NCBI GenBank assembly: GCA_035644935.1
Contig: DASQNO010000118.1
Coordinates: forward strand, 12,153-76,152
Direction: 5' to 3'
Origin: Sphingomonadaceae bacterium
GTDB lineage: Bacteria; Pseudomonadota; Alphaproteobacteria; Sphingomonadales; Sphingomonadaceae
DNA length: 64,000 bases
The number at the start of each line of letters is the position of its first letter. Positions within the stretch are counted from its first letter, which is position 1. The notes beneath the pieces were generated by a model. That model searched no databases. It was not told the origin of the DNA and saw only the letters and a program-made list of their open reading frames with translations. This document shows positions 24,951-33,978 of this stretch, one piece after another. The translations under genes were made by a program, and so were the position numbers.

Positions 24951-24960
24951 CCCCGCGCCG

Positions 24961-25680
24961 ATGGCGGCGCGGTTGAGCCTCGCGAAACTGGCAGCTTTGC
25001 TCGCATCGGCTTGGTTGATGCAGGCGTCGGCCGTTCAGCTTCCGCTACTCTCCGCGCCGGTCCCTCGCACCTTTACGGATCTCCCATTCATCGCCGCCCA
25101 TCCGGGCTTCGTCACCCGCTCCGGCAGGACGCTGACGTTCAGGAACGGAGAGACGCTCACGGACGAGGGCGACTGCAACGAAGGAGACTGCATTGAATGG
25201 CGCGCGGACGATGTCTGGCATGATCGCTTTGTCGGCGTCAGCGAAACGCAGTACGAGGACTCCGGCTACGTCATCGTCAATCTCGGCGTGAACAACTCGC
25301 TCGTCAGCACCGCATCGCGCCCGATCCCGTCCCCGAACGGCAAGTTGTTCTTTGCCGGGCACCATGACGACCGCGCTTGGGACCCGTTGCATGGCGCTGC
25401 GATCTGGGCGTTCGACGAGTCCGGCCCTAACCGTCTGCGCCTCGTCGATACGCATCTCCTCATGTTCGATCGTTTCGTCGCTTGGCGGGGCGACGCATGC
25501 GTCGAGTTCACCGGCGCGCGCGGTTACAGCAGGGGATTGAAGCCGACCCGCACCTACTGGCTGGCGGAGGAGGCGGGGGATTGGCGGTTGCTGGAGGCAC
25601 CATCCGCCGTGTGCGAGGTCAGCCGCCCTTTACCGGCGGCAGCACCTGCGCGGGGTCGAAATAGGCGCGGAAAGCCGTGA
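24961..25680 (+). CDS. Hypothetical secreted protein
   Basis: ATG 24961 gives signal-like LAKLAALLASAWLMQASA. No family recognised. The 3' end overlaps the convergent NTF2-like gene by 62 nt. Confidence 0.45.
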   Translation: MAARLSLAKLAALLASAWLMQASAVQLPLLSAPVPRTFTDLPFIAAHPGFVTRSGRTLTFRNGETLTDEGDCNEGDCIEWRADDVWHDRFVGVSETQYEDSGYVIVNLGVNNSLVSTASRPIPSPNGKLFFAGHHDDRAWDPLHGAAIWAFDESGPNRLRLVDTHLLMFDRFVAWRGDACVEFTGARGYSRGLKPTRTYWLAEEAGDWRLLEAPSAVCEVSRPLPAAAPARGRNRRGKP

Positions 25681-25999
25681 TGCCGCCTTCGCCCCATTCG
25701 ATGACGCTGACGCCGCCGTAGCGGAACGGACCGTTCTTGCTCGTGCCCTCGCTGACCCATTCCAGCAGCGACGCCTTGTCGTCCTCGACGATGTTGCGGA
25801 ATTCCGAATGGATCGTCTCGAATGCCGCGCGGTAGCTGGTCCAGAACGCAGCAGCGCCGCCTTCGCCTTCGTGCACGTGCTTGACCAGCGGATTAGACAC
25901 GTCGGCGTAGGGCGCGAACAGCGCGGCGATGGGCTCGACCTCGCGGTCGTGCTCGAGGCGGTACAGCGCCTGGATGAAGGTGTCGGCCTTGGCTGGCAT
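25619..25999 (-). CDS. SnoaL/NTF2-like small protein
   Basis: 126 aa. Has the pattern typical of ketosteroid-isomerase/SnoaL-like folds (FIQALYRLEH...FWTSYRAAF...EWVSEG...GVSVIEW). GAGGAG Shine-Dalgarno upstream of the ATG. Confidence 0.55.
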   Translation of the reverse strand: MPAKADTFIQALYRLEHDREVEPIAALFAPYADVSNPLVKHVHEGEGGAAAFWTSYRAAFETIHSEFRNIVEDDKASLLEWVSEGTSKNGPFRYGGVSVIEWGEGGITAFRAYFDPAQVLPPVKGG

Positions 26000-26066
26000 C
26001 GATGGGGCTCCTCGTCGGGTTCGGTTTCGCAAGCGCCAGGAGCGGGCTTTGGTTCCTGGCCTTCCG

Positions 26067-26999
26067 CTACTGTTTGGTGACCACGGCGCCGATGGCGGCG
26101 ATCCGCTCGACCTCCTCGTAACCCGGGTGGTCGAGCTGATCGCCGAAGATGTCGGGGTCGAGCTCGCGATAGCGCAGGGTGCAGCCAAGCGCGGGCAGCT
26201 CGTCCTCCAGCGCGCGGCGCAGGCCGTCGACGCCGCCGACGATCGAGGAGCCGGTGTACAGCAGCACGCGCCCGCCCGGCGCGACCTTTTCCGCGGCCGC
26301 CAGCGTCCAATCGAGCGACAGCCGCGCGCCGTACATGTCGCCGCCCGCGCGGTAGGCGGGGCCGTTGTCGTCGATGATGAAGGGCGGGTTGGCGATCGCA
26401 ACATCGAAGCCGGGCTCGACGGCCGCCACGGCGTCGCTCTCGTACGTCGTCGCCGCGACGCCGGCATGGGCGGCGTTGACCCGCGCCAGGCTCAACGCGG
26501 AGCGGTTGATGTCCACCAACTCGATCGCCGCATCTGGCAACGTCATCCCCGCGATGATCCCGCCGGCGCCAGCGCCCGCGCCGATGTCGACAAGGCGGGC
26601 GACGCCATCGCCGGCGGACAGTTCCGCGACGAGGAAGTCGGCGAAGCGGATGCTGTCGGGCCCGAGGAACACGGACTCGTCGGACGTGGTCGGATAGGCC
26701 GAATGCAGGAACAGCTGCCCGCGCACGCAGCTCGCGCGAACCTTGCTGACCAGCCCGGCCGCGGTATCGCGGAGCAGCCGCGCCCGCGTCATCAGCTCTA
26801 GAATCTCGGGCCCGACCACGGCCGCATCGAACGGCAGGCTCCACCCGAACACGCCGCGCAGATCCCGCGCGGTGCGCATCGACGCGCGCGCCACGACACG
26901 CCGGTGCGTTTCGGGCGTCGGCGCGGTGAAGGCGTAACCGGAGGCGTCGAGAGTGCGCAGCAAGGCAAGAGCCGCCTGCTCGGCGTCGGACAAGGTCAT
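26067..26999 (-). CDS. Class I SAM-dependent methyltransferase (small-domain/NPPF type)
   Basis: Motif I VDIGAGAGAGG and motif IV IANPPF, preceded by a ~120-aa N-terminal domain. ATG at 26999 (MTLSDAEQ). Confidence 0.75.
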   Translation of the reverse strand: MTLSDAEQAALALLRTLDASGYAFTAPTPETHRRVVARASMRTARDLRGVFGWSLPFDAAVVGPEILELMTRARLLRDTAAGLVSKVRASCVRGQLFLHSAYPTTSDESVFLGPDSIRFADFLVAELSAGDGVARLVDIGAGAGAGGIIAGMTLPDAAIELVDINRSALSLARVNAAHAGVAATTYESDAVAAVEPGFDVAIANPPFIIDDNGPAYRAGGDMYGARLSLDWTLAAAEKVAPGGRVLLYTGSSIVGGVDGLRRALEDELPALGCTLRYRELDPDIFGDQLDHPGYEEVERIAAIGAVVTKQ

Positions 27000-27016
27000 A
27001 AGCGTCGGGGCGTCGG

Positions 27017-27940
27017 TCAGACGGACGACCTTGCGAGCGGCATGGTGAGGCAATGGATGCCGCCGCCGCACCGCGTGAACTGCGACACGTCGACCGGCAG
27101 GACCTCGTAGCCGCGGCGGCGCAGTTGCGTGTTGACGTTGTCGTTGTCGGCCGAGGTCAACACGCGCCGGTCGCCCAGGCTGACGACGTTGCACCCGAGC
27201 TTGCGCGCCTGCTTGTAGCTGACGGGCAGGATTTCCATGCCGTCCGCTTCCATCTCCTCGATGAAAGCGTCGTCGAGCACATCGCGGCAGCCCAGCGCCA
27301 GATCGTCGTCGACAACGGCGAAGATCGTATCGAGGTGGAGGAAGTGCGGGTCGAAATGGTGCAGCATCGCGTGCCAACCGCGCCGCCGGAACATGCCGGC
27401 CAGCGCTTGGGCACCCTCTTCATCGGTGCGACCGCCTGTGACGCCGATGATCACCAGGCCAGGGCGCAGGATGCATATGTCACCCCCTTCGATCATGCCG
27501 CGTTCTATCCGTCCCAGCACGGGCACGCCGGCCGCTCTCGCCTCGGCCATGACGTGGTCCACCTCGGCGCGGCGGTGAAAGGCGCCGGGGCGCAGGCCGA
27601 CGAGACCCCAAGGCGTCATCAGCGTCGTGTCGCGGGCGAAAGCCTGGTCGGCGAGACCGGGCGCGGCGCGAGCGATCACCGTTTCTACGCCTGCGTCCTG
27701 AAGCGTCTGAACCAGCGCGGCATGCTGCGCCGCCGCGGCGCGCGGCGACACGTTCATGCCCTTTCGCAAAGCTTCGCGCGTCACCGAGTTGCACGGCACC
27801 ATCGCAAGGTGATCCGGCGCGGACAACAGCACCCGAGTCAGTCGGCCGAACTCGCTATCGACACCGAACTCCCGCCGAGCGGGTCCCCGCGACGTCTCGG
27901 TCTTGAGAACCCCGGTGTGCGGAGCGTAATCAGTGTACAT
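27017..27940 (-). CDS. Amidinotransferase-fold enzyme (arginine deiminase/DDAH-like guanidino-modifying)
   Basis: ARDTTLMTPWG, FLHLDTIF and the C-terminal catalytic-Cys block CGGGIHCLTMPL are characteristic of this superfamily. Confidence 0.75.
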   Translation of the reverse strand: MYTDYAPHTGVLKTETSRGPARREFGVDSEFGRLTRVLLSAPDHLAMVPCNSVTREALRKGMNVSPRAAAAQHAALVQTLQDAGVETVIARAAPGLADQAFARDTTLMTPWGLVGLRPGAFHRRAEVDHVMAEARAAGVPVLGRIERGMIEGGDICILRPGLVIIGVTGGRTDEEGAQALAGMFRRRGWHAMLHHFDPHFLHLDTIFAVVDDDLALGCRDVLDDAFIEEMEADGMEILPVSYKQARKLGCNVVSLGDRRVLTSADNDNVNTQLRRRGYEVLPVDVSQFTRCGGGIHCLTMPLARSSV

Positions 27941-27945
27941 CCCGC

Positions 27946-28854
27946 TCAGCCCCACAGCGCCGCGCGATAACGCGCGAAGCAGCGCTCGCCGGCCTTCAGG
28001 CGGATCAAGGCGCCTTCCGCGATGCCCCGGGCGCGGCGCGGATCCTCCGAAATGAGCGGGATCAGCGCGTCGCGGTTCCAATCCTCGCTGTGTTTGATGT
28101 CGAGGACGGCGTGGAGATCGAAATATCGGCGTTCCGGACCCGAGAAACCCAGCCGGCGAAGCCCCGCGCCTGTCGCGGCGGCGCGCGCGGGGGCGGTGAG
28201 TTCAATGACGCCCAGCGCGCCGACCGACTGCCAGGCATAGCGGCGCGTCGCGGCCATCGCGGTCATCGCGTTGGCCAGTGCGAGGCTCTCCCAAACGGTG
28301 GTCTCGATCCGCGGCTTGAGGCCCAGCGTTTCGATCAGTCCGTCCAGCATCGGCCCGTGCATGCCCCTGATATTGCCGCGGCCCATTTCGTCCCAATAAT
28401 TGCGCGCCAGCTCCATCTTCGGGGTCGCCGGCAGCTTTACCTGCGTCATCGCAACGAGATCGTCGAACCCCGCCTCGCCCGCGGCCTCCTGTTCCAGGAA
28501 CCAGGCGAACTCCTCACGCGTCGCGGTTTCCGCGAGCCAAGGGAACAGCGGGTCGTTCTCGCCCGGGCCCGTGCCCTTCAACGCTTCGAACCAGGCGATG
28601 AAGCCATCGACGTCGGTGGGCGCGGCGGCGGCCTCGTCCGCGACCTCAGCGCGAAGCTCCTCCATGAAGCCGCCTTCCAGCCGCTGCATGCGCACGTCGT
28701 TCTCGAACCCTTCGCGCCAGTCGGCGGTGGCGAACTGCGGCGCCAGCCGCTCGTGGTTCCACGCGCTCAGCGCCTGCTGGAACCCGTCATTCAGAAACTG
28801 CGACGCGGACGCAGCCGCCACGCCGGTGAATTTGGTCGCCATGCGAGATGTCAT
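27946..28854 (-). CDS. Heme-oxygenase-like di-iron enzyme (iron-containing redox enzyme family, Haem_oxygenas_2-like)
   Basis: Ligand-type motifs NYWDEMGRGNIRGMH (E..x..H), VIELTAP and YFDLHAVLDIKHSEDW (HxxxDxxH). Its stop lies 5 nt from the next gene's start. Confidence 0.7.
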   Translation of the reverse strand: MTSRMATKFTGVAAASASQFLNDGFQQALSAWNHERLAPQFATADWREGFENDVRMQRLEGGFMEELRAEVADEAAAAPTDVDGFIAWFEALKGTGPGENDPLFPWLAETATREEFAWFLEQEAAGEAGFDDLVAMTQVKLPATPKMELARNYWDEMGRGNIRGMHGPMLDGLIETLGLKPRIETTVWESLALANAMTAMAATRRYAWQSVGALGVIELTAPARAAATGAGLRRLGFSGPERRYFDLHAVLDIKHSEDWNRDALIPLISEDPRRARGIAEGALIRLKAGERCFARYRAALWG

Positions 28855-29104
28855 CCGTTGCGTATGGAGACTCGATCAACACGCCGGTTGCCGGTCCGTT
28901 CCTGCCTCGCGCGCCGCCGAACCGCGCTGGGACAGTCAAGCTGCGCTCTATGTTAACGCAAAGCCGCAGAATGACGTTCGCAGATGAAAGCGGTGCGTTT
29001 GCAGAAGAGCGGGCGCGCGCCGCAGCGGCCGCACCGCGCCGCCTTGCAAATCGCCCCGCCGCTTGTAGCGTCGAGACAGCACGCCTCCCAAGAAAGAAGC
29101 ATTC

Positions 29105-31195
29105 ATGATCAAGCCCTTGCTCCTGGCCGGCCTGGCGACTTTCGCGCTCGGCGCCGCGTCGGCGCAGACCGCCCGAACGCCTGCCAAGACGCCCGCTAAG
29201 GCCTCCGCGAAGCCGGCCGCCGCCGCAGCCAAACGCCCGACCTTCGGCAAATGGGGCTTCGACGTTGCCGGAATGGACCGCACGGTGAAGCCCGGCGACA
29301 GCTTCTTCGGATACGCCAACGGCAACTGGGACAGGAACACGCCGATTCCCGCCGACAAGTCGTCCTGGGGGGGCTTCGGCGTGCTGCGCGACCTGTCCGA
29401 CCAGCGCACCCGCGCCATCCTGGAGGAGGCGGCGCGCAGCAACGCCGCCGCCGGGAGGCCCGCGCACAAAGTCGGCGCGCTTTACGCGACCTTCATGGAC
29501 GAGGCGGCGATCGAGCGCGCGGGCGTCGCGCCCTTGAAGCCCTATTTCGCCAGGATCGATGCAATCAGCACCCCGGGCCAACTGGCGCACGCCTTCGGCA
29601 TGGCGAACCGCATGGGGATATCGACCCCGATCGGCGGCGGCGTCCGCCAGGACCTCAAGGACAACACGCAATACGGCGTGTACATGAGCCAGGGCGGGCT
29701 CGGCCTGCCCGACCGCGACTATTATCTGGACGACGCCAACCCCAAGTTCGTCGCCGCGCGCGCCGCCTACCAGACGCACGTCGCCAACATGCTGCGCCTG
29801 GCCGGGATCACCGACCCCGCGGGCCGGGCGCAGCGCATCTACGAACTGGAAAAGAAGATTGCGCAGGCGCACTGGACCCGCGCGCAATCTCGCCAGGTCG
29901 AAAAGCGCTACAACCCGATGCCGACGGCGGGCCTGGGCACCGCGATGCCCGGGTTCGACTGGAACGCGTACCTGAAAGCCGCCAGCCTCGACACGCGGCC
30001 GCAGGTCATCGTGTCGCAGCCCAGCGCGCTGACCGGCACCGCGCAGCTGATCGCGTCCGAGCCGCTGCAGACGTGGAAGGATTATCTGACGCTGCGCACG
30101 CTGTCGCGCGCGGCGCCGATGCTGTCCAAGGCGTTCGTCGATGAAAGCTTCAACTTTTACGGCAAGACGCTGGCCGGCACGCCGCAGATCGAGGAGCGCT
30201 GGAAGCGGGGCGTCGGCTTTGCCGGAAGCGCGATGGGCGAGGCCGTGGGCGAGATGTACGTCGCGCGCCACTTCACGCCTGAGGCGAAGGCCAAGATGGA
30301 CGTGCTGGTGAAGAACGTCATCGCGGCGATGGATCGGCGGCTGGCGGGCCTCGACTGGATGGCGCCCGAGACGCGGGTCAAGGCGCGCGCCAAGCTGGCC
30401 GCGTTCACGCCTAAGATCGGATACCCCGAGAAATGGCGCGATTATTCGCGGCTGGAGGTGCGGCCGGGCGACCAGCTGGGCAACGCGTTCCGCGCCATCG
30501 AATTCGAGTACCAACGCAACCTCGACAAGATGGGCAAGCCCGTCGACCGCACCGAATGGGGCATGACGCCGCAGACGGTGAACGCCTACGCCAATTTCGG
30601 CATGAACGAGATCGTGTTCCCGGCCGCGATCCTGCAGCCGCCGTTCTTCGATCCCGACGCCGACGACGCCGTGAACTATGGCGGTATCGGCATGGTCATC
30701 GGGCACGAGATCAGCCACCATTTCGACGACCAGGGCCGCAAGTTCGACGCGGCGGGCAACCTCGCCGACTGGTGGACGCCGCAGGACATCGCGCGGTTCA
30801 AGGCGCTGACCGACAAGGTCGTCGCGCAATATGCCGCGTACGAGCCGCTGCCTGGCAGCAAGGTCAACGGCGAGTTGACGCTGGGCGAGAACATCGCCGA
30901 CCTGGCGGGGCTGACCGTCGCCTACGACGCTTACAAGATGAGCCTGGGCGGCAGGCCGGCCAAGGTCATCGACGGCTATACGGGCGACCAACGCTTCTTC
31001 CTGGGCTTCGCGCAGGTGTGGCGCAACAAGTATCGCGAGCCCGCGCTGCTGCAGAACCTGGTGACGGACAGCCACACGCCGGGGCACTTCCGCCCCAACG
31101 TCGCGCGCAATTTCGACCCTTGGTACGCGACGTTCGGCGCCAAGGCGGGCGACGCGCTGTACCTGTCGCCGGAAGACCGGATCCGGATCTGGTAG
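29105..31195 (+). CDS. M13 family zinc metallopeptidase (PepO/endothelin-converting-enzyme-like), secreted
   Basis: VIGHEISHHF (HExxH), GENIADLAGL and NAYANFGMNEIVFPAAILQPPFF. N-terminal signal peptide. Confidence 0.92.
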   Translation: MIKPLLLAGLATFALGAASAQTARTPAKTPAKASAKPAAAAAKRPTFGKWGFDVAGMDRTVKPGDSFFGYANGNWDRNTPIPADKSSWGGFGVLRDLSDQRTRAILEEAARSNAAAGRPAHKVGALYATFMDEAAIERAGVAPLKPYFARIDAISTPGQLAHAFGMANRMGISTPIGGGVRQDLKDNTQYGVYMSQGGLGLPDRDYYLDDANPKFVAARAAYQTHVANMLRLAGITDPAGRAQRIYELEKKIAQAHWTRAQSRQVEKRYNPMPTAGLGTAMPGFDWNAYLKAASLDTRPQVIVSQPSALTGTAQLIASEPLQTWKDYLTLRTLSRAAPMLSKAFVDESFNFYGKTLAGTPQIEERWKRGVGFAGSAMGEAVGEMYVARHFTPEAKAKMDVLVKNVIAAMDRRLAGLDWMAPETRVKARAKLAAFTPKIGYPEKWRDYSRLEVRPGDQLGNAFRAIEFEYQRNLDKMGKPVDRTEWGMTPQTVNAYANFGMNEIVFPAAILQPPFFDPDADDAVNYGGIGMVIGHEISHHFDDQGRKFDAAGNLADWWTPQDIARFKALTDKVVAQYAAYEPLPGSKVNGELTLGENIADLAGLTVAYDAYKMSLGGRPAKVIDGYTGDQRFFLGFAQVWRNKYREPALLQNLVTDSHTPGHFRPNVARNFDPWYATFGAKAGDALYLSPEDRIRIW

Positions 31196-31378: not shown

Positions 31379-32611
31379 CTGCCCCACTTCGCCTTCATCG
31401 CGCCGCCGCTTCCCGGCCATTTCAACCCGCTGCTGGCGCTGGCTGGCGAACTCGTGCGGCGGGGGCATCGGGCGACGTTTCTGCATCAGCCGGACGCCGC
31501 GCGCATGGTGGCGGGGGCGGGGATCGGGTTTCATGCGATCGGCGCGGACACATACCCGCCGGGATCGCTGGACGCGTGGATCGGGCGGATGGCGCGGCTC
31601 AACGGGCCGGTGGGCCTGCGCGGCCTGATCGCCGAGACGGCGGCGCAGACAGACATGATCGCGCGCGAGGCGCCGGGTGCGATGCGCGCGCTGGGCGTCG
31701 ACGCGGTGGTCGCGGACCAGATGGAGCCCGGGGCGGGCCTTGCCGCCGAGCATCTGCGGCTGCCGTTCGTCACCACCGCCACGGGCCTGCCGATCAACCG
31801 CGAGCCGGGCGTGCCGCCGCCCTACGTCGCCTGGGACTATGACGCGTCCGAACGCGGCGTGTGGAAGAACACTGGCGGCTATCGCGTTTCCGACTGGCTG
31901 ATGTCGGGGGTCGGGGACGTCATCGAGGGCAATGCCCGCCGCCTGCGCCTGCCGCGCCGCCGCCGCGCCGATCAGGGCTTTTCGCCCTACGCGCAGATCG
32001 CGCAGGCGGTGGCGGGTGTCGATTTTCCCCGGCGCGAACTGCCCGGCAGCTTTCATTATCTCGGGCCCTGGCGGGATGCCGACGGCGAGTGGACGCTGCC
32101 CGATCCCGACGGGCGGCCGCTGGTCTTCTGTTCGCTGGGTTCGCTGCAGGGTTCGCGCGGGGAGATCTTCCGCAACGTCGCGAGCGCCTGCCACGAACTC
32201 GGGCTGCGGCTGGTGGTGGCGCACGGCGGGCGGCTGGCGCCCCGCGATGCGGCGCGGCTGCCGGGGGACCCCCTCGTCGCCGCCTATCTGCCGCAGCGCG
32301 CGGTGCTGGCGCAGTGCGCGGTGGCGATCACGCATGCCGGGTTCAATACGGTGCTGGACGCGCTGAGCTTCGGCGTGCCGCTGGTCGCGATCCCGCTGGC
32401 GTTCGAGCAGCCGGCCACGGCGGCGCGGCTCGCGCGCGCGGGGGTGGCGGAGATCGTTGCAAAGGGGGCGGGGCCGAAGGCGCTGAAGCGGGCGGTGGCG
32501 CGGGTGTTGGCCGAGCCGGGGTATCGCGAGGCGGCGGGCCGTGTGCGGGCGGACATCACGGCGGCGGGTGGGGTGACGCGCGCGGCGGATCTGGTGGAGG
32601 GGTGCCTCTAA
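31379..32611 (+). CDS. crtX: MGT-family glycosyltransferase, zeaxanthin glucosyltransferase (CrtX)-like; start codon unresolved
   Basis: HFAFIAPPLPGHFNPLLALAGELVRRGHRATFL N-terminus and C-terminal HAGFNTVLDALSFGVPLVAIP UDP-sugar motif. Homology begins at 31385, but the only in-frame codons after the upstream TGA (31352) are CTG 31367 and CTG 31379. The first GTG is at 31454. Confidence 0.7.
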   Translation: MPHFAFIAPPLPGHFNPLLALAGELVRRGHRATFLHQPDAARMVAGAGIGFHAIGADTYPPGSLDAWIGRMARLNGPVGLRGLIAETAAQTDMIAREAPGAMRALGVDAVVADQMEPGAGLAAEHLRLPFVTTATGLPINREPGVPPPYVAWDYDASERGVWKNTGGYRVSDWLMSGVGDVIEGNARRLRLPRRRRADQGFSPYAQIAQAVAGVDFPRRELPGSFHYLGPWRDADGEWTLPDPDGRPLVFCSLGSLQGSRGEIFRNVASACHELGLRLVVAHGGRLAPRDAARLPGDPLVAAYLPQRAVLAQCAVAITHAGFNTVLDALSFGVPLVAIPLAFEQPATAARLARAGVAEIVAKGAGPKALKRAVARVLAEPGYREAAGRVRADITAAGGVTRAADLVEGCL

Positions 32612-32612
32612 A

Positions 32613-32760
32613 GTCTTCCCCCCGCTCTCGCGGTGGAGGGATCATGCCGCGAAGCGGTGTGGTGGAGAGGCATCTTCGACGATGCCTTGGCGCTGCAAAA
32701 CCCCTCCACCATCCGGCTTCGCCGGACGGTCCCCCTCCCCGCAAAGGCGGGGGAGGACTG
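32613..32760. repeat. Family C repeat element
   Basis: AAAACCCCTCCACCATCC..GGTCCCCCTCCCCGCAAAGGCGGGGGAGGAC with a partial inverted left arm. Lies between convergent crtX and crtW. Confidence 0.7.
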
Positions 32761-32764
32761 AAGG

Positions 32765-33505
32765 CTAGCCCCGCCGCTCGGCCGGCAGTCTCCACCAGGG
32801 CAGATGCGGCGCGCGGTGGTGTTCGTGGTGGTAGCCGAAGTGGAAGCAGGTGATCAGCGACAGCCAGCCGGGGTAGTCGTTGCTGCGGGCGCGGTGCCGG
32901 TCCCGAAAGTCTTCGGCCTCGTGACGGTGCGGCAGGAAGGTGCCGAACGCGAACAGCTGCAGCGATGACAGGATCGACGGCACGCCCCAGAACAGGATCA
33001 TGTTGAGCGGCGGCGCGCCCAGCGCGAGCAGGTAGAACCAGAAGATCGCGAAAAGCACCGCGAATTCGCGCAGGCCGAAATATTCGCGGAAGAAATTGAG
33101 GTACCAGGGCCAGAACCGCGTCGGGTGATCTTCGGCGAAATCGGGATCGTCGGCGGTGCCGGCGTGCCGGTGATGCGCGTGATGCTTGGCGAGGAAGCGG
33201 TCGAACCAGAAGCCTGCATAGAGCGCCAGCGCGACCCGCCCGACCCAGCGGTTCACCGCCGGCCGCCCGGGCGCCAGCGAGCCGTGCATACAATCGTGCG
33301 CGACGATGAACAGGCCGACGTTGAGCCAGCAGAGCACGGGCACGAGCAGCGCGGCGGCGAGGAGGCCCCAGCCCGCAAGCTCCAGCGCGAAGACCGCATA
33401 GATATGAAGGACCACGTAAGAAACGGCGACGCCGCCGGCGAGCGCGAGGCCGATCGCGGCCTGGCGGTCCTTGGCGGCCGAACCGGAGAGGGGCAGCGAA
33501 GCCAT
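32765..33505 (-). CDS. crtW: Beta-carotene ketolase CrtW (membrane di-iron desaturase family)
   Basis: His boxes HDCMH, HHAHHRH and HHEHH in a four-TM protein of 246 aa. Confidence 0.85.
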   Translation of the reverse strand: MASLPLSGSAAKDRQAAIGLALAGGVAVSYVVLHIYAVFALELAGWGLLAAALLVPVLCWLNVGLFIVAHDCMHGSLAPGRPAVNRWVGRVALALYAGFWFDRFLAKHHAHHRHAGTADDPDFAEDHPTRFWPWYLNFFREYFGLREFAVLFAIFWFYLLALGAPPLNMILFWGVPSILSSLQLFAFGTFLPHRHEAEDFRDRHRARSNDYPGWLSLITCFHFGYHHEHHRAPHLPWWRLPAERRG

Positions 33506-33531
33506 AAGCGGAGCTTAGCCTAAACGCGCGC

Positions 33532-33978
33532 TCACAGGAAATATTTCATCCGCACTGGCATGCGCGACGCGCCCGCGGGGACGGCGAAGCGGACGTCGCG
33601 GAAGGCGGGCGGGCCGAAGCGCACCACCGGATTGCGCGAGAAGCCGAAGCCTTCGCGCGGGATCTTCATCGTCGTGTCGAAGCGCCCATTGCGGTTCTCG
33701 TCGTGCATCACCGACAGCGCGTAGTCGCGGGGCTTGAGCGCGTCGAAAACGAGGCCGTCCGCCTTGCCGGCGGGCACGCGCAACTTGCGCGCGGCGGGAT
33801 CGGCGGCGCAATCGGGGAAGTGCCGGGGGTTGGCCGACAGGCAGAGGAAGAGTTCGCCCTTGGCGTTGCGCACGCCCGACAGGTCGACGCGCAGTTCGCC
33901 CGTCGGCTCGGCGGCGGCGAGAAGCAGCGGGGCGGCGGCTGCGGCCAAGAGCAGTCGAGTAGCGTGTGTTTTCATCAT
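33532..33978 (-). CDS. DUF2141 domain protein, secreted
   Basis: Signal peptide MMKTHATRLLLAAAAAPLLLAAA, then GELFLCL...MHDENRNGRFDT...PREGFGFSRNP, typical of DUF2141. Confidence 0.7.
   Translation of the reverse strand: MMKTHATRLLLAAAAAPLLLAAAEPTGELRVDLSGVRNAKGELFLCLSANPRHFPDCAADPAARKLRVPAGKADGLVFDALKPRDYALSVMHDENRNGRFDTTMKIPREGFGFSRNPVVRFGPPAFRDVRFAVPAGASRMPVRMKYFL

Follow-up and report, generated by a model that had tools for sequence, protein, structure and literature searches.

A conserved gene pair of a heme-oxygenase-like di-iron enzyme and an N-methyltransferase, often joined by a deiminase-fold hydrolase in Sphingomonadales: a candidate amino-acid tailoring cassette

We analyzed a 64,000-nucleotide (nt) stretch of a Sphingomonadaceae bacterium genome (assembly GCA_035644935.1, contig DASQNO010000118.1, positions 12,153 to 76,152; hereafter called the window), which has a G+C content of ~69%. 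It contains a compact cluster of four genes coding for a heme-oxygenase-like di-iron enzyme (HDO), a hydrolase with the fold of arginine deiminase (ADI) and dimethylarginine dimethylaminohydrolase (DDAH), an S-adenosylmethionine (SAM)-dependent N-methyltransferase (MT) and a small SnoaL-like protein. A preliminary description, made from the sequence alone, had proposed these genes as a guanidino-modifying pathway. Comparison with related loci indicates that the conserved unit is the pair HDO plus MT; the ADI-fold enzyme frequently joins this pair, and the SnoaL gene has been added locally. The features of the locus are as follows (window coordinates; aa, amino acids).

27946-28854, minus strand: gene 1, predicted HDO of the HrmI-like clade, 302 aa
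27017-27940, minus strand: gene 2, predicted ADI/DDAH/amidinotransferase-fold cysteine hydrolase (guanidino-group-modifying), 307 aa
26067-26999, minus strand: gene 3, class I SAM-dependent N-methyltransferase, 310 aa
25619-25999, minus strand: gene 4, SnoaL/NTF2-like small protein, 126 aa
28855-29104, no strand assigned: divergent intergenic region of 250 nt between the HDO gene and an M13 peptidase gene, presumed from its position only to be the operon promoter region

Analysis of open reading frames (ORFs) confirmed that the four genes run in one direction on the minus strand from 25619 to 28854 with gaps of 5, 17 and 67 nt, as first described, and all the motifs quoted at that time are present (WDEMGRGNIRGMH and FDLHAVLDIKH in gene 1, HLDTIF and GGGIHCLT in gene 2, DIGAGAGAGG and NPPF in gene 3). 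The G+C content at third codon positions (GC3) is 0.82 to 0.90 in all four, in line with the coding bias of the host genome. Two of the starts can be placed differently. The public annotation of a protein identical to gene 1 (P0001) begins four codons later, at the ATG at 28842, and the 17-nt gap holds only if the MT starts with the ATG at 26999; an alternative TTG start at 27053, implied by the 328-aa length of a 96%-identical protein (P0241), would produce a 37-nt overlap of the MT with gene 2. An Rfam search of positions 25000 to 29600 gave no family at an E value of ≤1, an RNA-family search for riboswitches or leaders at 12 related loci returned only tRNAs, and no convincing sigma-70 promoter or terminator sites were found in a scan of the minus strand. 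As had been noted before, the operon includes no transporter or regulator, and a nonribosomal peptide synthetase (NRPS) context was likewise not seen in the window or in ~175 related loci.

Gene 1 matched PF14518 ("iron-containing redox enzyme") along residues 118 to 289 with 143.3 bits (cutoff of 28.9; E value of 9e-42). When the single sequence was compared to the PDB, the sole strong solved relative was HrmI (E value of 3.6e-30), and a profile of the family aligned with HrmI over nearly its full length (E value of 6.4e-51), followed by SznF (7e-6), FlcD, RohS (1.5e-3) and BesC. The predicted ligands of the di-iron site, three histidines and three carboxylates (3His/3carboxylate; E156, H166, E218, H248, D252 and H255), match the E, H, E, H, D and H positions of HrmI; they are invariant in 35 genome-derived homologues and were kept in 80 of the 81 sequences of a metagenome alignment that includes the window protein. 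The PF14518 match and the six intact predicted ligands agree with the HDO assignment proposed earlier from the ligand motifs. A position in the TenA/PqqC/CADD housekeeping branch, the grouping that had been named as damaging to that proposal, was rejected: the nearest proteins are the N-oxygenases HrmI, SznF and RohS, the PDB matches contain no TenA, PqqC proper or CADD, and a search with PF03070 gave no match. One FlcD deposit is labeled PqqC, and we take it to be the fluopsin HDO. Judged by its sequence, gene 1 is a member of the HDO superfamily on the HrmI-like branch, yet no HrmI orthologue. At least 8000 HDO relatives are present in databases at E values of ≤1e-10, while the characterized reactions number about a dozen, nearly each of which revealed new chemistry (PMC13108848). 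The substrates of HrmI and SznF are free amino acids, which they oxidize at the side-chain nitrogen, and RohS acts on 2-aminoimidazole; the relatives characterized to date are described as biosynthetic (PMC13108848).

Among more distant HDO relatives (alignment A3, P0361 to P0510, 28 to 50% identity), all six ligands were found in only 7 of 30 sequences. Those that have lost ligands still carry an N-terminal 'LHxxLAxxNxxRL', a 'WFExL..GPGQ.DPLF.WLA' block and a C-terminal 'IAEGALxRL..RCFxRYR' block. With 23 of the 30 lacking the full set, ligand-less and possibly noncatalytic paralogues seem to be common in this branch, and ligand-less proteins have been reported among SznF homologues (PMC11177257).

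Gene 2 matched PF02274 (91 bits; E value of 8e-26) and PF19420 (89 bits; E value of 4e-25), both above the cutoff, and also the DDAH of Pseudomonas aeruginosa (E value of 2e-15). A Foldseek search with its AlphaFold (AF2) model (predicted local distance difference test [pLDDT] of 89) gave DDAH as the best hit (target template modeling [TM] score of 0.87), together with ADI, AGAT/amidinotransferases and NnhA, a 2-nitroimidazole hydrolase. The catalytic set is complete (C297, H202 and D204), accompanied by R103-D104, E151/D154 and the putative carboxylate-binding residues R123 and R171, and the motifs FxRD, EGGD and HLD are ADI-like. In the alignment with the P. aeruginosa enzyme, C297 corresponds to C249, H202 to H162, E151 to E114, R123 to R85 and R171 to R132, and D204 falls at K164. 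Conservation of the key residues reaches at least 97% among 84 sequences, except for H122 and R171 (at least 80%). The ADI/DDAH fold read from the catalytic blocks in the preliminary description is thus supported by Pfam, by Foldseek and by the full catalytic set; on alignment, neither the metal ligands of the HDO family (80 of 81 and 35 of 35 sequences) nor the catalytic Cys, His and Asp of the gene 2 family turned out to be missing. Identity with DDAH, ADI, arginine dihydrolase or CtlX proper was rejected, as gene 2 scored far under every NCBIfam equivalog cutoff (105.7 versus 340 for DDAH, 81.1 versus 414 for ADI and 45 versus 450 for arginine dihydrolase). The family appears to be a separate branch of the guanidino-group-modifying superfamily, with weaker relatives (32 to 44% identity) in other Alphaproteobacteria. 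R85 and R132 of DDAH, which we take to bind the alpha-carboxylate of the substrate, are both kept in gene 2, and the substrate is therefore probably a free amino acid or a C-terminal residue.

The MT matched PF05175 (MTS, "small domain") with 52 bits (E value of 1e-13) and has a family-specific N-terminal domain of ~120 aa. Its GxGxG (D138-G144) and N204-P-P-F207 motifs are invariant in 27 homologues; the MT partners of more distant HDOs have NPPY instead of NPPF. Whole-chain Foldseek comparison of its AF2 model (pLDDT of 88) placed GenN (gentamicin 3''-N-methyltransferase) and AerE (an asparagine side-chain N-methyltransferase acting in a peptide) at the top, with query TM scores of 0.62 to 0.67 versus 0.53 for PrmC; RsmC also ranked lower. 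Motifs, Pfam match and fold matches all fit the N-methyltransferase that had been proposed. PrmC and PrmB models gave 40 to 51 bits against cutoffs of 199 to 230, and an identity with PrmC/HemK was rejected despite the shared NPPF motif (TIGR03534, 50.9 versus 199.1 bits, residues 131 to 211 only). Methyltransferases with NPPY/F motifs act on planar, amide-like nitrogens such as those of glutamine, asparagine and exocyclic base amines. The ureido nitrogen in citrulline fits this description, while a protonated guanidinium does not.

The MT also matched the PADLOC model mad2 of the MADS defense system with 53 bits, which looks like generic similarity of N-methyltransferase domains, since no other protein of the cassette matches defense models. 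An anti-phage defense system was rejected, as the HDO, the ADI-like protein and the SnoaL protein had no PADLOC match.

Gene 4 is SnoaL/NTF2-like as described before, with PF12680 (SnoaL_2) above threshold (44.2 bits; cutoff of 27; E value of 3e-11). A SnoaL gene downstream of the MT was found only in locus L003, whose HDO is 86% identical to gene 1. Beyond L003 none was detected by tblastn or jackhmmer (six-frame ORFs, first 88 loci; 86 others), nor by tblastn among 80 metagenome loci, and the gene is a lineage-specific local addition outside the conserved cassette.

To evaluate conservation, the ADI-like family was scanned with one genome per species, and 80 loci were kept, the titles of which name Sphingomonadales, metagenome-assembled genomes labeled 'Proteobacteria' or 'Alphaproteobacteria' and one 'Enterovirga'. 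The HDO gene lies directly upstream of the ADI-like gene on the same strand at 25 of these loci, 22 of which also have the MT directly downstream. Three more show rearranged proximity (an HDO at a distance of 1.5 kb on the other strand, an MT 1.8 kb downstream and a divergent MT). Across 27 HDO-ADI(-MT) loci the junctions range from -10 to +7 nt, and the clusters occur in at least five distinct flanking contexts. ADI-like homologues of ~60% identity were also found directly downstream of an HDO in Allosphingosinicella flava (L007) and in a metagenome contig (L008), one of the two with the MT. All four genes are present in L003, together with the same flanks (M13 peptidase, aldehyde dehydrogenase and glutathione S-transferase), and the four-gene match there is plain synteny. 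The suggestion that the four-gene set is conserved elsewhere therefore holds in part: an HDO-ADI-MT operon exists in at least 22 other species-level genomes, but the SnoaL gene is absent from 86 loci. ORF clustering for a conserved fourth gene or a precursor peptide in the Sphingomonadales HDO-ADI-MT loci retrieved only lineage-level synteny, and an isochorismatase-family neighbor, found at only three loci, was dropped as a candidate partner.

Solo HDO genes with 74 to 76% identity to gene 1 are present in Sphingomonas profundi, Sphingomonas sp. LY54, a genome titled 'Enterovirga' and a metagenome contig. In neighbor-joining trees of both the HDO and the ADI-like proteins, clustered and solo copies interleave, and comparison of the alignment revealed no residues separating clustered from solo ADI-like copies. 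This indicates one orthologous family in which gene order varies.

Some observations concern the surroundings of these genes. Upstream of solo HDO genes in three genomes (L002, L004 and L005/L006) there is a divergent cell wall hydrolase gene (PF07486). Hemerythrin-domain genes lie beside the solo HDO of strain LY54 (L005:7010-7987) and near an ADI-like/MT locus of Rhizorhabdus (L043:7446-8603). 'Enterovirga sp. GCM10030262' (L002 and L020; JBHTDC010000001.1) has a sphingomonad-type HDO (74%) and an ADI-like gene 0.55 Mb apart; since every other named isolate in this set of 80 loci belongs to the Sphingomonadales, this label may deserve checking.

A second scan, anchored on the HDO and directed to metagenomes, produced 80 loci with HDOs 47 to 76% identical to gene 1 and G+C contents of 41 to 74%, 42 of which are flanked by at least 1.2 kb on both sides. 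In 21 of these 42, a full-length MT homologue with NPPY (38 to 51% identity) was found within 1.5 kb of the HDO, mostly directly upstream, and also downstream, divergent or convergent (at least four orientations). A PurD-like ATP-grasp ligase gene was present in 10 and an ADI-like gene in 2. The partnership originally suggested is therefore conserved in a modified form, in that the ADI-like gene joins some loci, but HDO plus MT (21/42) is far commoner than HDO plus ADI-like (2/42). The PurD-like protein has ~430 aa and matches GARS_A and GARS_C, with 100 bits to the purD model (cutoff of 288); tblastn located it at 24 loci, including four Allosphingosinicella HDO-ADI-MT clusters. A 134-aa SET-domain protein is encoded convergently with this ligase at eight loci (L173 known from its annotation, the other seven from tblastn), belonging to two cluster architectures: L150:3180-4877, L133, L155, L033, L042, L054, L062 and L173:4262-5909. 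Neither the SET nor the PurD-like gene is found in the window.

Adjacent MT and HDO genes are also carried by plasmids of Sphingobium yanoikuyae, Komagataeibacter (six plasmids), Variovorax sp. (Betaproteobacteria) and Legionella sainthelensi (Gammaproteobacteria), so that the adjacency spans three proteobacterial classes in differing orientations. A plasmid of Sphingomonas daechungensis has a decayed copy of the pair, where ligase, HDO and MT all look decayed, and Novosphingobium sp. ES2-1 has the HDO and ADI-like genes on one plasmid and the MT on a second. The L. sainthelensi plasmid pLA01-117_113k, a conjugative plasmid of a clinical isolate, encodes a 609-aa fusion of an ADI-like protein and an MT (L169:5061-6890; WP_101901829.1). 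The N terminus is ADI/DDAH-like (28% identity to gene 2; E value of 1e-16) and keeps the EGGD, RT, HLD and Cys motifs, and the C terminus is a full-length homologue of gene 3 with NPPF (37% identity over 308 aa; E value of 3e-64). An HDO gene 49% identical to gene 1 follows 26 nt after the fusion ORF. The 90%-identity cluster of the fusion has a single member. An ADI-MT fusion beside an HDO in another proteobacterial class is strong evidence that all three proteins act together.

A clue to the substrate comes from cyanophycin, a polyaspartate with arginine side branches that is degraded to beta-Asp-Arg and then to aspartate and arginine. On S. yanoikuyae plasmid pKN1 (L172:1398-9137), the genes cphA (cyanophycin synthetase), iaaA (isoaspartyl peptidase), cyanophycinase, MT, HDO and a DAACS transporter follow one another on one strand, with a 4-nt overlap between cyanophycinase and MT. 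At L004:10246-12898, a distance of 3.3 kb separates cyanophycin genes from an HDO that is solo in other respects. Only 24 alphaproteobacterial genomes had cphA1 in a published survey (PMC10206079), and with the gene so rare in the class, two independent co-localizations are unlikely to be due to chance. Together with the conserved DDAH-type carboxylate-binding arginines, this context gives indirect support to an arginine-type substrate. A DAACS-type transporter gene also flanks the HDO or MT at L089 and L156.

The nearest characterized relatives of gene 1 are HrmI and BelK (PDB 9N1A and related entries), the L-lysine N6-oxygenases of hormaomycin and belactosin biosynthesis, which have the same 3His/3carboxylate pattern and are, like gene 1, stand-alone HDOs (~300 to 360 aa). 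However, the match is distant (108.7 bits) and the partners here are an N-methyltransferase and an ADI-fold hydrolase, while no HrmJ/BelL-type iron/2-oxoglutarate-dependent partner or NRPS context was found in the window or the ~175 related loci. An orthology with HrmI/BelK was rejected because of the distant score and the absent pathway partners, and the target of gene 1 may be a guanidino or ureido nitrogen instead of the lysine amine used by HrmI. The closest logic to the pairing of HDO and MT is found in streptozotocin biosynthesis, in which the N-methyltransferase SznE and the HDO N-oxygenase SznF act on the arginine side chain (PMC13108848). Among solved proteins, SznF ranks second as a match of the HDO profile, although it has a 3His/4carboxylate site and makes the N-N bond with a C-terminal cupin, whereas the window HDO has only 302 aa and no cupin. 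A function of gene 1 as an SznF-type N-nitrosating enzyme was rejected, since it matched only PF14518 and no cupin. To our knowledge, no ADI-fold enzyme takes part in streptozotocin biosynthesis.

In the mangotoxin mbo operon, MboA (HDO), MboB (its redox partner), MboC and MboD (ATP-grasp ligases) and MboE (ADI-fold deiminase) act on Leu-Ala-Arg (PMC13185094). It is the sole described pathway we found that unites an HDO, an ADI-fold enzyme and ATP-grasp proteins on a substrate that contains arginine and whose C-terminal carboxylate is free, and MboE ends in GGIHC, similar to the GGGIHC of gene 2. However, MboA works as a desaturase/acetylenase and depends on MboB, no methyltransferase is among the named mbo genes, and the ATP-grasp protein of the loci related to the window cassette is PurD-like and absent from the window itself, whereas mbo has the MboC/D ligases. 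Orthology was rejected on the basis of BLASTP (E value of 2.7 for MboA versus the HDO; 0.02 for MboE versus gene 2, C-terminal motif only). In D-cycloserine biosynthesis, DcsA N-hydroxylates arginine, the hydrolase DcsB releases hydroxyurea and DcsG is an ATP-grasp enzyme. The likeness is one of concept, by analogy: oxygenation of a guanidine nitrogen, hydrolytic release of the N-hydroxy-ureido group and an ATP-grasp step. The enzymes differ, with a heme protein in place of the HDO and an arginase fold in place of the ADI fold. DcsA is mentioned in PMC11177257. Our literature search found no published description of an HDO/deiminase/MT cassette, and it stands as an orphan, HDO-centered set, probably for amino-acid tailoring, in which nothing so far breaks a rule.

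We tentatively prefer a role in the tailoring of a small molecule, specifically of a side-chain nitrogen of the arginine/citrulline type. The substrate, the order of the reactions, the product and the physiological role we infer as follows. The cassette would be a co-transcribed operon that modifies a small, nitrogen-rich metabolite, built on a conserved and horizontally mobile pair of HDO and NPPF/Y-type MT. Between the two, a gene for an ADI-fold cysteine hydrolase is inserted here and in about one-third of the sampled Sphingomonadales species, with overlapping or near-abutting junctions. The likeliest substrate would be a side chain, either that of L-arginine or L-citrulline in free form or that of a peptide with C-terminal arginine such as the cyanophycin dipeptide beta-Asp-Arg. 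The ADI-like enzyme might first convert the guanidino into a ureido group via a thiouronium intermediate on Cys297, while hosts without this enzyme could draw on citrulline supplied by their arginine metabolism. The MT would then methylate the amide-like ureido or terminal nitrogen, within the chemistry class of HemK (glutamine) and AerE (asparagine), and the HDO, using O2 at its di-iron site, would N-hydroxylate or further N-oxygenate a side-chain nitrogen. This would yield an N-hydroxy/N-methyl ureido- or guanidino-amino acid, and in other hosts a PurD-like ligase could join the product or a precursor to a second acid.

Several findings weigh against this scheme. The ADI-like gene is solo in 52 of the 80 loci of the family scan, and the HDO is solo in four of the five further contexts looked up at 74 to 76% identity. 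As no residue signature distinguishes clustered from solo ADI-like copies, this protein may serve arginine catabolism in general and have been recruited opportunistically. The pair HDO plus MT usually occurs without a guanidino-modifying enzyme, and the substrate need not be derived from arginine. The cyanophycin link involves 2 of the ~115 HDO-bearing loci examined, and HrmI, the nearest characterized HDO, acts on lysine rather than arginine. The recurrent SET and ATP-grasp neighbors also fit a protein or peptide substrate. Finally, the window offers no transporter, regulator or riboswitch as a clue to the ligand.

An unlikely alternative, which still deserves weight, is a catabolic or detoxifying route for the breakdown of arginine or guanidino compounds modified by methylation, N-oxygenation or in other ways, or for obtaining nitrogen from the arginine of cyanophycin, with the hydrolase releasing ammonia, methylamine or hydroxylamine. 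DDAH is the best match of gene 2 both in structure and in sequence, and its fold relative NnhA hydrolyzes an N-oxygenated, guanidine-type ring. Solo ADI-like homologues adjoin amino-acid permeases or ABC transporters and LysR regulators, and on pKN1 the MT-HDO pair follows cyanophycin-degrading genes beside the DAACS transporter. However, an MT that consumes SAM would be odd in such a route, and among the partners of the HDO it is the most conserved one. The window operon has neither transporter nor regulator, and the HDO relatives characterized so far are described as biosynthetic (PMC13108848).

We also regard as unlikely a posttranslational modification of a protein or ribosomal peptide, in which the MT would act on Gln, Asn or Lys side chains, the ADI-fold enzyme would deiminate peptidyl-arginine and the HDO would hydroxylate a residue, with SET and ATP-grasp proteins adding further marks. 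The nearest sequence families of the MT are the protein glutamine methyltransferases PrmC and PrmB, although the scores of 40 to 51 bits are far from the cutoffs of 199 to 230. AerE, one of its top structural matches, methylates asparagine in a peptide, and MboE is an example of an ADI-fold enzyme with a peptide substrate (PMC13185094); the ADI-like protein, however, keeps both of the alpha-carboxylate-binding arginines of enzymes acting on free amino acids, and the characterized HDO relatives use small molecules (PMC13108848). The SET protein (8 loci) and the PurD-like ATP-grasp protein (24 loci) recur beside the HDO or MT, but both genes are absent from the window, and the cassette has neither a conserved small ORF nor a precursor-like gene beside it. 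If the substrate were a protein, HDO chemistry would be extended to the modification of cellular proteins.

The weakest reading, in which the HDO, a conserved sphingomonad gene, stands alone and its neighbors here reflect only local synteny, would account for the solo HDOs of 74 to 76% identity (S. profundi, LY54, 'Enterovirga' and the metagenome contig) and for the shared flanks of L003, the only other four-gene locus, but it is strongly disfavored and very improbable given the overlapping or near-abutting junctions in 27 loci, the same arrangement in differing flanking contexts, the HDO-MT adjacency re-created in different orientations in three proteobacterial classes and the ADI-like/MT fusion in Legionella. 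The probability that remains goes to something outside the readings listed here.

Returning to the tailoring of a small molecule, a bolder version of it, which we consider improbable in its full extent, is that HDO plus MT, with optional deiminase, PurD-like ligase and SET protein, would constitute an unrecognized mobile route from arginine or citrulline to an N-hydroxy-N-methyl ureido (hydroxyurea-like) or related N-oxygenated amino acid. The compound might be metal binding, release nitric oxide or hydroxylamine, or act as an antimetabolite, and it would be made without nitric oxide synthase, cytochrome P450, flavin enzyme or NRPS by a route widespread in Sphingomonadales and present on plasmids of Komagataeibacter, Variovorax and Legionella. 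If the product is indeed an N-oxygenated and/or methylated arginine or citrulline, the cassette would be a compact, cupin-free route to N-O or N-hydroxyurea-type functionality, and this would account for a set of genes that many sphingomonads from soil and plants have and that a plasmid of a clinical Legionella isolate also carries. The cassette is abundant, compact and experimentally tractable and should thus be of solid interest to specialists. With a conserved active site, two or three small soluble enzymes and a natural fusion supporting their partnership, it is a good target for function assignment, and the cyanophycin context suggests arginine as the starting point.

Other genes lie near the cluster in the window. 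On the plus strand, an ORF at 24958-25680 codes for 240 aa with a signal-peptide-like N terminus and no Pfam match; it is convergent with the SnoaL gene, overlapping its 3' end by 62 nt. Its GC3 of 0.78 is below that of its neighbors, and the equivalent site in the close relative L003 has no called gene. Upstream of the M13 peptidase gene, positions 31454-33811 encode a UDP-glycosyltransferase (EryCIII/UDPGT-like) and a membrane protein of the fatty-acid-desaturase family. In the syntenic region of L003 (L003:1129-3593), a DUF2141 protein adjoins this block, which is kept in that 86% relative and may be involved in the tailoring of carotenoids or lipids.

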